NCBI RefSeq assembly: GCF_024700885.2
Contig: NZ_CP117016.1
Strand: one strand, 5' to 3'
Origin: Escherichia coli
GTDB lineage: Bacteria; Pseudomonadota; Gammaproteobacteria; Enterobacterales; Enterobacteriaceae
Length of the DNA: 64,000 bases
Positions 60,563 to 63,808 of the stretch are shown one piece after another. A model generated the notes under the pieces. It searched no databases. It saw only the letters and a program-made list of their open reading frames with translations, and was not told where the DNA came from. The position numbers were made by a program, and so were the translations under genes. Numbering within the stretch: the stretch's first letter is position 1; every line of letters begins with the position of its first letter.

Positions 60563-60904
60563 TCACACTATTAATTTCGTTTCATGCCAGCCTTTAGTCA
60601 CCCAGCATTGCGAGTCACCATTACACGGGCATGAATTAACTGGAACTCTCCCGCCGCACTTACCGCAACGTTTTCTGCTGATCGATTTTATACGCCCGCG
60701 CACGCGTGCATCATCCTGGCGGATCAGTAACGCTATATACTCACCAAATTCGTAAGGCGCACGCCCGGGGCGACGCGTGGCACAGTTACGCTCCAGCATT
60801 TCAATTTCCTGAGCATCAAGCACAATTTCCAGCTTACGCACACCAGATGCAGCTTGTCTGGCTCTCTGAGCGGCTTTGCGCTCTGCTGCTGATTTAGCCA
60901 TCAA
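60563..60904 (-). CDS. Hypothetical protein with basic N-terminus and Cys-rich C-terminus (113 aa)
   Basis: AAERKAAQRARQ... helical region then RCGKCGGRVPVNSCPCNGDSQC. Confidence 0.4.
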   Translation of the reverse strand: MMAKSAAERKAAQRARQAASGVRKLEIVLDAQEIEMLERNCATRRPGRAPYEFGEYIALLIRQDDARVRGRIKSISRKRCGKCGGRVPVNSCPCNGDSQCWVTKGWHETKLIV

Positions 60905-60936
60905 TATTTACCTTTATCGCGAACACCTTTACCGGT

Positions 60937-61179
60937 TTATCTCCTTTGCATGGCACGTAATTTTTTCAGATGGTTCTCCTGTTCTGTTTCAGCCAGGATC
61001 TGGTGATATTCTCTGTGATCAATGTGTTCGAATAAATTATTGAATTTTCTGATGCACACCCTTCCAGGATAGCCATCCATCCTCTTGAAGAACACTGAGT
61101 GATCAGTACTACGAATGATTTTTACTGGATAGCCGGCGCTATCGGTGTATATCTGACCACGTTGAATCAGAGAGAACAT
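60937..61179 (-). CDS. Hypothetical phage protein (80 aa)
   Basis: ORF in early-region operon. Confidence 0.35.
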   Translation of the reverse strand: MFSLIQRGQIYTDSAGYPVKIIRSTDHSVFFKRMDGYPGRVCIRKFNNLFEHIDHREYHQILAETEQENHLKKLRAMQRR

Positions 61180-61240
61180 TCGCTTATCCCCAGATAAAAA
61201 TATAGCAATACCAATTACATAAAATACTTCAGGCCAAGCA

Positions 61241-62026
61241 TCATTTCACCTCCTGCGGCGGTTCTGGTAGAGGCATCCAGTGTGACGGTTTCCACGACGC
61301 ACCAGGAATTATCCACCCATCATTAGCGTCAGGATGCCCGGGGATGTAAGTAGCCCATTTCATTCGCCAGTCACCTTTCCTGTCAAACTCCACGGCAACA
61401 AGAACGGCTGTTTTGGTATTCGGCATTCGCTCACTACAGCTTATCCAACCATCCGGAGTTACCGGAGAGTTGACAGCCAGTCTGCGCAAAACAGCCTTAA
61501 CAGCCTCAATACGGTCATCATCGCAATTTTCCAGCGTATCTATGCGGTCGAGCATGATGATGGCGTTATCAATATCAGGATTGCCAGTCCACTCATTACT
61601 GCGATTGGATTCGGCAGCCTGGTTGCCAGATGCTGGTTGATTGTCGGCTTGGCTATAGCTAACAGCACGGCAGGCATCCTCTACGCCTTTAACTGCATCT
61701 GCGCAGTAGTTATAGCGATTGCATTCCACTAACTTCTGCTTGAGGTTTTCAATTGCTTGCGCGACATTAGCCTGTGTTACCGGCACAGGTGGAGCGGCGA
61801 ATAGATATCCTCCAAAGTCAGGAAGCTCTCCAATGGCCTGTACGAACTTTTGTTTGCCTACGTCAATTCCTAATGGGTAGTGAGCTATAATTTTTGCCAC
61901 TGGCTCTGCCTCCAGCGATGCCAGAGCAATTTCATAAGCACGGCGCTCAATATTGTCTCGCACGTCCAGGCTGCCGATTCGCTCTTTGATTTCTTTAATC
62001 AGTTCTTTGTCGGTTAAAGTGGTCAT
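61241..62026 (-). CDS. Phage early protein with a DUF551-like C-terminal domain
   Basis: C-terminal WISCSERMP...SHWMPLPEPP pattern recalled as DUF551-like. Confidence 0.45.
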   Translation of the reverse strand: MTTLTDKELIKEIKERIGSLDVRDNIERRAYEIALASLEAEPVAKIIAHYPLGIDVGKQKFVQAIGELPDFGGYLFAAPPVPVTQANVAQAIENLKQKLVECNRYNYCADAVKGVEDACRAVSYSQADNQPASGNQAAESNRSNEWTGNPDIDNAIIMLDRIDTLENCDDDRIEAVKAVLRRLAVNSPVTPDGWISCSERMPNTKTAVLVAVEFDRKGDWRMKWATYIPGHPDANDGWIIPGASWKPSHWMPLPEPPQEVK

Positions 62027-62304
62027 TTGTTAATCCTCAAAACTTTATGCCCGGGCGCAAAAGCACGCGTTTTGTCTTTGCTTATTCGCCACCCGTCTTT
62101 ACGGGCCTCTTTTGCACAACCAGACCATGACGTACCGATATACTCACCGAAGTTTGGCACTGGATATACACCTTCCGTACACTGGCGACAATCACAATAG
62201 AGATGCATGGTGTAACTTGCGGCAATAGCCATATCACTCTCCTTTAGTACGCAAGTGGTTTTTCCAGCGGTTTTGCGCCGCGCTGGGCTTTTTGCAAAAA
62301 CCAC
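62023..62304 (-). CDS. Small Cys-containing phage protein (possibly Lar-like)
   Basis: CDCRQC and C-x-K motifs; true start may be an internal ATG. Confidence 0.3.
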   Translation of the reverse strand: MVFAKSPARRKTAGKTTCVLKESDMAIAASYTMHLYCDCRQCTEGVYPVPNFGEYIGTSWSGCAKEARKDGWRISKDKTRAFAPGHKVLRINK

Positions 62305-62426
62305 AATCCATCATCCCGTAATGTTTCATTAACCCCATCCGTCGGTTGCTGAGTCTCACCCACTGCCAGACGCCAGGACCGTTTCTGCGAACTAATAGGA
62401 TTTTTGCTTTACGGTTTTTCATCGCT

Positions 62427-63158
62427 TTACTCTTCTTCCTCACGCCCAAGATATGAAAGAGATGTGACTGCTGTTGCATGGAAACAACAAACCTTGCTAA
62501 GTGCGCTTTTAAACTCTTCAAGGTCGGATTGCGATTTGATTCTGAAAGGTGACTGCGCAATCCCGGACATGGTAATGCCGCTAACATTGCTCACTGCGCT
62601 GTAGTGATATACGTGCCTATTAGCTGATTGAGCCACGTGTTCCTGTTGGCTGTTTATATTGGCGTCCTGTCTTGTGTTGGCCTGCTCCAACTCTTCGATA
62701 CGTTCAGCCATCGCAGCACACTCTTCAAAGTTGCTTAATGCTTTTCGCTCCGATTCAGCGCATTGTTTTTCCAGTTCTGCTATGCGCTTACCTCCATCCA
62801 CGATTACTCCCTCGTAATGCTCGCGCTGCTCGTTGAGTTTTGATTTTGCCGACTCCAGTTGTTTTGTTAGTTCCGCAATACGGCAAACATCGTTGATACG
62901 CGTTTCCTCTAATGCGTTGATCTCATCCAGTAGTGCCAGCGCAACTTTTGGTGGGATAGCCGCGATATAACGGGCATTAGCACCAGCATTCCTTTGCCCA
63001 TCAATGCCAGGCCAGTCAATAAAGTATCCGCAATGCCTACCCTCAGACGTGCGCGCAGGATAAATGCCGTTATGACCCGGCAAAATATATGCTACCCATT
63101 CATCTTGCGTTGCCTGTTCCGCCGCCTCGCGCAGTGCCTGATAATTAATCTTGCTCAC
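62427..63158 (-). CDS. Ead/Ea22-like early protein
   Basis: Coiled-coil-rich protein; N-terminal MSKINYQALREAAEQATQDEWVAY resembles Ea22-like prophage proteins (from memory). Confidence 0.4.
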   Translation of the reverse strand: MSKINYQALREAAEQATQDEWVAYILPGHNGIYPARTSEGRHCGYFIDWPGIDGQRNAGANARYIAAIPPKVALALLDEINALEETRINDVCRIAELTKQLESAKSKLNEQREHYEGVIVDGGKRIAELEKQCAESERKALSNFEECAAMAERIEELEQANTRQDANINSQQEHVAQSANRHVYHYSAVSNVSGITMSGIAQSPFRIKSQSDLEEFKSALSKVCCFHATAVTSLSYLGREEEE

Positions 63159-63808
63159 TGGCTGCCTCCTTTGCGAAGCTGTTCAGCGATATCTTCGAGA
63201 ACGCCATCAGAGAATGAGCGGTCAAAATCGCCTTCCCGCGCATTAGCCATAAACTCAGTAGAGGTAAGAATCATCCGGGCAATATCCGCGGCGTTCTTCG
63301 CAGTATCATCAATAAAACCAGCTTCCCAAGCAGCCAGCATTCTGTTCGCCACAAAGTAAGCGCCCTCCTTGCGTGCTTCAGTCTTCACTTCATCCAGGAA
63401 AGTGTCGGTCGCAGGAGTGGTTTTTTGTGGTGATAGGGCGATACGAATTGTTTCAAGAGCTGGATCTATTTCCACTGTTGGCACTTTGATAAAACCAAGC
63501 TGCACGCCATTCATAATGAACGTGCGGCGATCCTCACATATCGCCTTCAGCGCCGCATTCTCCGCTGCCAGCGCCGAAAACTTCTCATGTGCCAACTTAA
63601 CAGCCGAATCAGCCTGCTTAATTGACTCAATCGCTCTCTGGTGGTCTTCGGCCAGCGCATTAGCACGCACCAGTTGCACTTCAAGTTGCGTTGCCAAATC
63701 GCTGATCAGCTTTGCCACACTGCGCATATCAACGGCACCACATTCTGCTTTCAGTTCCGAAGCCATCTCATGCCCGGTGGAAACTAACCCTTTGATATTA
63801 CTTTCCAT
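63155..63808 (-). CDS. Hypothetical phage early protein (217 aa)
   Basis: ORF with overlapping stop/start with downstream gene. Confidence 0.4.
   Translation of the reverse strand: MESNIKGLVSTGHEMASELKAECGAVDMRSVAKLISDLATQLEVQLVRANALAEDHQRAIESIKQADSAVKLAHEKFSALAAENAALKAICEDRRTFIMNGVQLGFIKVPTVEIDPALETIRIALSPQKTTPATDTFLDEVKTEARKEGAYFVANRMLAAWEAGFIDDTAKNAADIARMILTSTEFMANAREGDFDRSFSDGVLEDIAEQLRKGGSQ

Follow-up and report, generated by a model that had tools for sequence, protein, structure and literature searches.

A conserved phage gene and a candidate palindromic binding site for its product at the end of an exchangeable 'ea' gene cassette in a Uetakevirus prophage of Escherichia coli

Background

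In the phages epsilon15 and phiV10 of the genus Uetakevirus, blocks of genes (gp44-gp49 and p46-p55, respectively) are located between the replication or junction-resolvase genes and the small terminase subunit gene, terS. The block analyzed here occupies the same place, at positions 60563-63808 of a stretch of 64,000 nucleotides from E. coli (contig NZ_CP117016.1), identified as strain MLI114, that is referred to below as the window. It consists of seven minus-strand genes, in agreement with RefSeq, which we denote g1 to g7 in the order of transcription; the last stop codon lies 40 bp before the annotated terS, which is followed by the large terminase subunit gene, terL. The first six genes belong to the well-known pool of phage 'ea' genes, and the last one, g7, encodes a conserved small protein which quite probably binds a 12-bp palindrome, GTGAC-N2-GTCAC, that overlaps its own stop codon.

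The families represented among g1-g6 (EaE, Ead/Ea22 and EaA) have homologs among the ea genes of phages P22 and lambda, in which a conserved N-terminus and a coiled coil are likewise combined with swappable C-terminal domains. The ea genes of P22 belong to the leftward early operon near int/xis, and the same holds for lambda, in contrast to the genes described here, which are part of a rightward operon adjoining the terminase. The sole experimental report that we found for any of the member families describes a pro-lysogenic effect of lambda Ea22 (PMC10834534).

The prophage and its early-right cassette

The block resides in a complete prophage of the phiV10/epsilon15 (Uetakevirus) type that is integrated at guaA; the annotated neighborhood can be followed from the integrase to the tail fiber. 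Positions 57000-64000 of the window match the MLI114 chromosome, NZ_CP117013.1, with 100% identity. The gene order, which agrees, as does the sequence, with phiV10 and epsilon15, starts with the integrase, RecT and nuclease genes, a CI-like repressor, a divergent Cro-like gene, and DnaT-like and P-like replication genes, and continues through DUF1064, g1-g7, terS, terL, the portal, the capsid and the internal virion proteins to the tail fiber. The published integration site of phiV10, epsilon15 and ZX5 is the 3' end of guaA, and the published att core, ATTGAGTGGGAATGATT, is present beside guaA and the integrase gene at position 35556 of the locus denoted L001 (window position = L001 position + 36999). 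The block has the composition of a Uetakevirus early-right cassette, that is, it fills the slot between the replication genes plus DUF1064 (or RuvC) and terS, with an EaE-like gene in the first position and a gp49-like gene in the last one.

We interpret g1-g7 as the distal part of a delayed-early Uetakevirus transcription unit that comprises six exchangeable ea genes and a core regulator, g7, together with its palindromic site, and assign to this interpretation as a whole a probability of about 0.7.

The conserved gene g7 and its predicted fold

Gene g7 is found in each of the five relatives in which g1-g7 were compared, namely, phiV10, epsilon15 and three E. coli prophages, with 91-98% protein identity in the E. 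coli relatives and 79% identity to epsilon15 gp49. Together with its junction with terS, g7 is present in 636 of the 5,426 complete E. coli genomes over which all whole-genome counts were taken. Gene g7 is a conserved core gene and not an accessory one. The g7 family includes epsilon15 gp49, phiV10 p55 and N15 gp46, and the distant homologs, with 30-45% identity, come from N15 (gp46), phiKO2, Pectobacterium phage ZF40, P2-like Yersinia phages, and Aeromonas and Klebsiella phages; about 150 families were counted among cluster representatives.

In the alignment of the g7 family, C79 and C82 are invariant, and C99, R8, R13, R43 and E54 are conserved in at least 90% of the sequences. No Pfam family, including ribbon-helix-helix (RHH) families, scores above the threshold with g7, although there are faint matches to RHH and RepB-regulator families, and in NCBIfam, there is a faint match to a 'LexA-regulated protein'. 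An AlphaFold2 model built on the family alignment, with a predicted local distance difference test (pLDDT) score of 91.5, consists of a basic helix (residues 5-19, including the sequence AERKAAQRARQ), an extended segment (20-29), two helices (30-42 and 52-74), a zinc-ribbon-like element (79-99) and a short helix. Neither a Foldseek search with this model nor a sequence search of solved structures yielded a significant match. When two copies of g7 were joined by a flexible linker and modeled with the matching alignment, residues 22-28 of both copies were predicted to form strands, and therefore we provisionally place g7 in the RHH superfamily; the predicted strand-helix-helix fold and the predicted dimerization via an antiparallel two-stranded ribbon are those of RHH proteins. 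In summary, the prediction for the g7 protein is a dimer of the RHH type whose subunits additionally carry a basic helix at the N-terminus and a four-cysteine (Cys4) zinc ribbon.

A palindrome that accompanies the g7 family

The stop codon of g7 is embedded in a perfect 12-bp palindrome, GTGACATGTCAC (Table 1). Despite indels in the sequence beyond it, this palindrome is retained in epsilon15 and in the E. coli relatives; phiV10 has one mismatch. The virion-gene operon ends with a second copy and an intrinsic terminator that follows it directly, and this combination of palindrome and terminator also marks the end of the virion operon in phiV10 (19493) and epsilon15 (19517).

We sampled 13 loci that carry a g7 homolog, from roughly nine phage lineages, including N15 (L014) and a number of metagenomic or draft-genome loci, such as L011, L012/L013 and L016-L019. 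The motif GTGAC-N2-GTCAC is present in 12 of the 13, compared with 0.001-0.04 occurrences expected per locus under a first-order Markov model. When spacers of 0 to 6 bp were allowed, every match in these loci had a spacer of exactly 2 bp (23 of 23 sites), and no such motif was detected in lambda or in approximately 45 kb of flanking chromosome. In the Uetakeviruses, N15 and L018, that is, in three lineages, the palindrome overlaps the stop codon of the g7-family gene, each time in the same frame, and one copy is physically tied to the end of this gene in five lineages. The half-sites never vary, and the differences between lineages are confined to the two central bases, which is the pattern expected for a protein dimer bound to double-stranded DNA. 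Taken together, the co-occurrence of the gene with the motif and the position of the motif make it quite probable that g7 binds GTGAC-N2-GTCAC. A literature search found no paper that contains this motif.

The motif was also considered as the Sop centromere of N15, and this identification was rejected given that the Sop-type GACC-N2-GGTC repeats are located elsewhere. There are four such palindromes in N15 (33483, 35934, 41128 and 45565), presumably the Sop centromere sites; they share with GTGAC-N2-GTCAC the layout of two half-sites around a 2-bp spacer but occupy other positions. In a separate observation, small repeated hairpin-like elements that resemble boxB-type sites (e.g., ACAC-GAAAG-GTGT and CAC-AAAAA-GTG) lie downstream of the palindrome, ahead of lysis genes, in three lambda-like loci that are related to one another, L016 (6690-6760), L011 (4560-4620) and L019 (1150-1200).

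The mosaic cassette g1-g6

The product of g1 is the positional ortholog of phiV10 p46 (57% identity) and epsilon15 gp44 (45%), both annotated as 'Eae-like' and both aligned with gaps. There is no Pfam match, and the protein is a mosaic, including its interior, with residues 131-214 84.5% identical to P22 EaE, and the N-terminal part matching other EaE/Ea22-type PHROGs. The g2 protein passes the gathering score of PF13935 by a wide margin (92.2 bits vs 27), over residues 2-130 and the full length of the profile, and has a conserved N-terminus followed by a coiled coil; its C-terminal domain (residues 179-243), which is variable, belongs to a separate family, phrog_29890. The Ea22 proteins of lambda and Stx phages show the same kind of mosaic architecture (PMC10834534).

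Downstream, g3 encodes a very basic protein (isoelectric point 11.6) that resembles phiV10 p50 and p51 and is 67% identical to p50. The g4 protein, which carries Cys and His residues, is 91-99% identical in phiV10 (p52) and other prophages and belongs to a narrow family of 42 clusters, all from Enterobacteriaceae and all annotated as 'hypothetical'. The g5 protein is modular and EaA-like: separate segments are matched by several PHROGs, related phages carry the EaA annotation, 589 phage records match, and residues 193-258 contain a DUF551 domain above the gathering score (76.9 bits vs 22). DUF551 relatives have been tied to replication or oxidative-stress phenotypes, not to immunity, and the function of the domain is not established. 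The g6 protein is above the gathering score of DUF4222 (56.1 bits vs 27) and is present in one of the five compared relatives. Sequence searches of solved structures with g1, g2, g5 and g6 gave nothing significant, although g6 weakly resembles eL21.

The first-pass annotation had described six co-directional open reading frames (ORFs) upstream of the terminase; the ORFs are real and co-directional, and their position was correctly given, but there are seven of them, and the one overlooked is probably g3. Its DUF551-like and Ea22-like proteins correspond, correctly, to g5 and g2, and its Cys-rich basic protein to g7 (6 Cys, isoelectric point 9.9). Among the three proteins that it had left unassigned, two can be assigned, namely, g1 (by its EaE-like C-terminal part) and g6 (DUF4222). 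The view that nothing here could be assigned from sequence was also too pessimistic with respect to g7, for which we report the status of a core gene, a predicted RHH fold and a candidate palindromic site.

The same slot in related prophages contains three to nine differing genes, and the flanks are kept, with DUF1064 (RuvC in epsilon15) and an intergenic region on one side and g7 and terS on the other; this is the outcome of the synteny comparison that the first-pass annotation had suggested. Parts of the six-gene combination are found in 3,022 of the 5,426 complete E. coli genomes, including plasmids of ~90-100 kb, whereas the combination is intact in one genome, and the best phage record spans 28% of the interval. 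Thus, g1-g6 are members of the ea gene pool of P22 and lambda that are exchanged as cassettes between conserved flanks. To that extent, the characterization of the region as accessory and mostly of unknown function holds for six of the seven genes, which are mosaic and belong to the early rightward operon. By analogy with Ea22, these genes most likely tune the lysis-lysogeny decision or the host physiology; a requirement for them in lytic growth is unlikely.

The first-pass annotation had also associated such regions with anti-defense or superinfection exclusion, and the corresponding alternative is that the cassette is an island of this kind, in which at least one of g1-g6 acts on host immunity or on other phages. 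The extreme turnover of the cassette between conserved flanks, the small size of the uncharacterized products and their early expression are all compatible with such a role; early, small and rapidly replaced genes are typical of counter-defense loci. However, profile and defense searches, of the kind that had been suggested as a check, detected no defense or anti-defense family in g1-g7 in Pfam or NCBIfam, and PADLOC reported nothing beyond sub-threshold coiled-coil matches (JetC, SMC) for g2, which we treat as noise, and no matches at all for the other genes. Furthermore, the sole functional data on a member family, those on Ea22, concern the lysogeny decision, as reflected in the pro-lysogenic effect, and the phenotypes linked to DUF551 relatives are those of replication and oxidative stress. 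An anti-defense island therefore appears to be an unlikely explanation of the cassette.

Transcription signals and the start of terS

Between g7 and terS, there is an intrinsic terminator that is kept at the nucleotide level in epsilon15, where it is annotated as such, followed by two operator-like sites, TTACC-N5-GGTAA, directly before the probable start of terS (Table 1). The equivalent site in the epsilon15 record is annotated as repressor-binding. In the entire prophage, there are 11 such sites compared with 0.62 expected, and these are located on both sides of the repressor gene and before DUF1064, terS, the portal operon and the tail-fiber gene. Because the sites precede the main transcription units, in keeping with the epsilon15 annotation, they suggest that the prophage repressor directly controls these units.

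The DUF1064 gene is the first gene of the transcription unit that includes g1-g7; upstream of it, outside the window, there is a terminator after gene P and two of the operator-like sites. Within the unit, the stop codon of g1 overlaps the start codon of g2 (GTGA) and that of g4 overlaps the start of g5 (ATGA), the g2-g3 and g3-g4 gaps (stop to start) are 4 bases and 1 base long, respectively, and all seven genes are preceded by a Shine-Dalgarno-like sequence.

The annotated start of terS lies upstream of both the conserved terminator and the two operator-like sites, so that the annotated extension runs across all of these. The Pfam Terminase_2 match begins at residue 45 of the annotated TerS, and the epsilon15 record places the start at the ATG equivalent to 60441/60444. 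Judging by these comparisons, the start of terS is probably mis-annotated systematically in the RefSeq records of these prophages.

The intergenic region that precedes g1 (63809-63869) is nearly identical in phiV10 and the three E. coli prophages and is recognizable in epsilon15 despite the different upstream gene (RuvC); the epsilon15 record annotates an IHF site in the equivalent region. The same region contains a tandem GTTATCAAT repeat. An identical 10-mer, GGATAAGCGA, immediately precedes the start codons of g1 and g6 (63817-63826 and 61180-61189) and may be a shared ribosome-binding sequence or a junction sequence for cassette exchange. In Rfam searches, no known RNA was found within 60563-63808; there is a tRNA-Arg nearby.

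This tRNA-Arg(TCT), at 57570-57646, lies between terL and the portal gene, next to an opposite-strand ORF of 115 aa (57943-58290; phrog_3163). Whereas the E. coli relatives share this tRNA, the position of the ORF varies in content, being occupied elsewhere by a Gp49-family gene or a 272-aa gene; this position is a second 'moron' slot. On the plus strand of the block, an ORF of 132 aa (61334-61732) matches phrog_23547 (E 1e-26), and the other plus-strand ORFs have no PHROG match. Because this ORF lies antisense to the DUF551 domain of g5, phrog_23547 is probably a family built from mis-called antisense ORFs.

Table 1. Features of the block and its surroundings, and occurrences of the palindrome in g7-bearing loci (window positions, unless L001 is given)
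Feature	Position	Strand	Remarks
g1	63155-63808	-	217 aa; phrog_14548, E 4e-70
g2	62427-63158	-	243 aa; Ead_Ea22 PF13935, E 5.7e-26; GTG start
g3	62234-62422	-	62 aa; phrog_1380, E 5e-39; in RefSeq
g4	62023-62232	-	69 aa; phrog_926, E 4e-36
g5	61241-62026	-	261 aa; DUF551 PF04448, E 2.3e-21
g6	60937-61179	-	80 aa; DUF4222 PF13973, E 2.6e-15; phrog_285, E 1.8e-33
g7	60563-60901	-	112 aa; phrog_536, E 2.4e-54
Palindrome GTGACATGTCAC (12 bp, perfect)	60555-60566	.	over the g7 stop codon (G-TGA-C); candidate g7 site
Palindrome GTGACATGTCAC, second copy	40370-40381	-	intrinsic terminator 40344-40369 directly after; end of the virion-gene operon
Intrinsic terminator	60488-60513	-	GCCGCC-AACTAT-GGCGGC, then TTTGTTTTG; between g7 and terS
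Two operator-like sites TTACC-N5-GGTAA	60444-60476	.	60462-60476 exact; 60444-60458 one mismatch; directly before the probable terS start
terS	59848-60444	-	probable start ATG 60444 or 60441; annotated TTG 60522
Conserved intergenic region	63809-63869	-	IHF-consensus site TATCAATAAGTTA at 63830-63842 and g1 ribosome-binding site
DUF1064 gene, 3' part	63870-64000	-	RefSeq; full gene L001 26871-27215, running past the window end
TTACC-N5-GGTAA sites	L001 2999, 20234, 23445, 23463, 27219, 27281, 29564, 29612, 30324, 30386, 35408		
Palindrome in epsilon15			three copies
Palindrome in phiV10			two exact copies and one with a single mismatch
Palindrome in N15			three copies, GTGACTGGTCAC or GTGACCAGTCAC; one over the gene 46 stop codon, same frame
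Palindrome in ZF40			three copies; one 3 bases past the stop codon of the homolog
Palindrome in a P2-like Yersinia phage			one exact copy; 33 bp from it, another with a single mismatch
Palindrome in a Mu-like element			one copy within the 3' end of the g7-family gene, coding VTGH
Palindrome in metagenomic or draft loci			L011, L012/L013, L016, L018 (over the stop codon of the homolog), L019

How g7 and its site might act

In the favored interpretation, the delayed-early rightward unit would start outside the window, at the region upstream of DUF1064 that is flanked by repressor operators, would run through the seven tightly packed, partly overlapping genes, and would end at the intrinsic terminator before terS. 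The g7 protein would then bind GTGAC-N2-GTCAC at its own stop codon as well as beside the terminators that end other operons, and the bound protein would control the transcription downstream, which, at its own gene, is that of the terminase operon. In the Uetakeviruses, each palindrome is located at the end of a transcription unit beside an intrinsic terminator, at three operon ends and at distances of 2-45 nt. After g7, the terminator follows 22-45 nt past the palindrome and is itself followed by the operators and terS; the third palindrome with its terminator comes after a reverse-oriented gene downstream of terL and is missing in the MLI114 prophage, which has a different gene at this place. 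That g7 regulates the transcription of the unit downstream of its site seems to us slightly better than an even bet. It might do so as a repressor, an activator, an insulator or an antiterminator.

Several observations weigh against the interpretation proposed here. The link between the protein and the site is drawn from co-occurrence and position, and one homolog-bearing locus, L017 (9.7 kb), has no palindrome. The adjacency to terminators is limited to the Uetakeviruses, with 5 of the 23 sites overall next to a terminator compared with a background of 4.8%, so that the motif was abandoned as a general companion of terminators. There is a weak enrichment of -10-like elements at the distance from the motif that a promoter would require (5 of 46 compared with a background of 4%, p 0.036), which is weak support for the motif as a -35 element, a reading that was likewise set aside. 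For the cassette, the Ea22 analogy comes from one paper on a distant relative. Finally, because N15 and ZF40 encode separate Q-like proteins, P2-like phages encode Ogr, and L011 has a weak Q-like match, the g7 family is not simply 'the' late regulator of the phages that carry it; in the lambda-like loci, the match in L011 weakens the case for g7 as the only late regulator.

A more specific possibility is that g7 is an analog of lambda Q, that is, an antiterminator which is loaded at a DNA site, allows RNA polymerase to read through the terminators beside its palindromes and thereby switches on the terminase and virion genes in phages without Q and N. The gene is located directly upstream of a terminator and the late operon, the Uetakevirus records contain no annotated homolog of Q or N, and the Uetakevirus palindromes precede terminators at short range, as described above. 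A promoter-like element (GTGACA, 17 or 18 bp, -10) accompanied by a terminator is found at the g7-terS junction of both E. coli and epsilon15; L019 and L011 have one as well, although the overall enrichment is weak (p 0.036). The order of elements in L019, where the g7 homolog is followed by the motif overlapping the promoter-like element, a strong terminator and a holin gene, recalls the Q-PR'-tR'-S arrangement, and homologs immediately precede lysis genes also in L011 and L017, for a total of three lambda-like loci. In addition, a profile search against PDB sequences gave a weak match of g7 (E 0.03) to the TraR/YbiI-type zinc fingers that bind RNA polymerase, an unconfirmed lead. Nevertheless, there is no Q family among the Pfam and PHROG matches of g7 or its homologs, N15 and ZF40 (and possibly L011) have Q-like genes of their own, and the motif does not adjoin terminators outside the Uetakeviruses. 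Moreover, the late operons carry their own repressor operators, which implies that they have their own promoters. On balance, we regard a Q-like antiterminator as rather improbable, marginally more so than an anti-defense island.

Alternatively, the palindrome could be the target of a host protein, for instance MatP, or represent a recombination sequence at module boundaries. The matS site that is bound by MatP in E. coli, GTGACRNYGTCAC, has the same GTGAC/GTCAC half-sites in a 13-bp sequence with a 3-bp spacer (PMC6907758); the phage sites are located at module boundaries; and the homologs for which an organism is named are those of enterobacteria or Aeromonas. In contrast to matS, however, the spacer of the phage sites is always 2 bp and never 3 bp, and the motif accompanies the g7-family gene in phages of unrelated types, with none in lambda or the ~45 kb of flanking chromosome and with one copy tied to the end of this gene in five lineages, all of which makes a host factor or a boundary sequence a poor candidate.

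Least plausible of all is a role of the element as RNA, namely, a GUGA-loop-UCAC hairpin that the arginine-rich helix of g7 would recognize much as lambda N recognizes boxB, because, notwithstanding the resemblance of AERKAAQRARQ, with the conserved R8 and R13, to an arginine-rich motif, the location after the gene and before the terminator that recalls nutR-tR1, and the presence of the hairpin in the predicted minimum-free-energy fold, the half-sites are strictly fixed, without compensatory variation and with only the central two bases changing, the stem would be 4 bp long, and g7 is predicted to adopt a folded RHH dimer, a DNA-binding fold.

A far broader version of the proposed mechanism can be put forward, albeit as a doubtful one: g7 (PHROG 536) and its palindromes might jointly form a previously unrecognized, widespread control module of phages, in which an RHH/zinc-ribbon protein, positioned at palindromes where operons end, would determine whether RNA polymerase gets past the neighboring terminators. 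Such a module would serve as the early-to-late switch of Uetakeviruses, which have no Q or N, and in N15-, P2-, Mu- and lambda-like phages, it would modulate accessory or late units.

Implications

The cassette itself is ordinary, given that epsilon15, phiV10, P22 and lambda already have annotated ea-type genes of this class. The pairing of g7 with the palindrome, in contrast, is a new computational prediction, which provides an uncharacterized but widespread family with a concrete predicted DNA target. About 12% of the complete E. coli genomes carry the Uetakevirus version of g7, and its homologs are found in N15-, P2- and Mu-like and other phages. The prediction also raises the question of how phages of the phiV10/epsilon15 type time the expression of their late genes without Q or N. 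Because phiV10 serves as a reporter phage for the detection of E. coli O157:H7, an understanding of how its late genes are controlled is of some practical use.

Comparison with known systems

The closest described counterparts of the block are those in epsilon15 and phiV10, which share with it the EaE-like first gene, the last gene (gp49/p55, 79-98% identical), and the arrangement of terminator and operators before terS. The prophage described here differs from these phages in the presence of g3 and g4, a different EaA-like protein and DUF4222, and in lacking an ASCH gene. Among the ea proteins, the pro-lysogenic effect and the tetrameric state are known for the Ea22 of lambda and Stx phages alone, and g2 and lambda Ea22 have unrelated C-terminal domains.

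The g7-terS junction is similar to the Q/PR'/qut/tR' region of lambda in that the candidate regulator gene is separated from the late operon downstream of it by no more than a short leader that contains an intrinsic terminator, and in some lineages with g7 homologs, the putative DNA site is near a promoter-like element, as is the site of Q. Unlike Q, to which it shows no similarity in sequence or fold, g7 appears to have several sites per genome, at the ends of operons. Homology to MatP was considered as well and rejected (hhalign probability 0.3%, BLASTP E 14): the model of g7 has a zinc ribbon instead of the four-helix bundle and coiled coil of MatP, and its candidate site has a spacer of 2 bp rather than 3 bp.

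The most similar proteins, as far as the predicted structure is concerned, are the RHH regulators, including Arc, Mnt, CopG, TraY and various antitoxins, with which g7 would share the fold, the ribbon-mediated dimerization, the small size and a short palindromic target. Compared with these regulators, g7 is predicted to possess two additional elements, a basic N-terminal helix with conserved arginines and a C-terminal Cys4 zinc ribbon, and its putative site is found where its own gene ends, on the 3' side, and not at the promoter of that gene.

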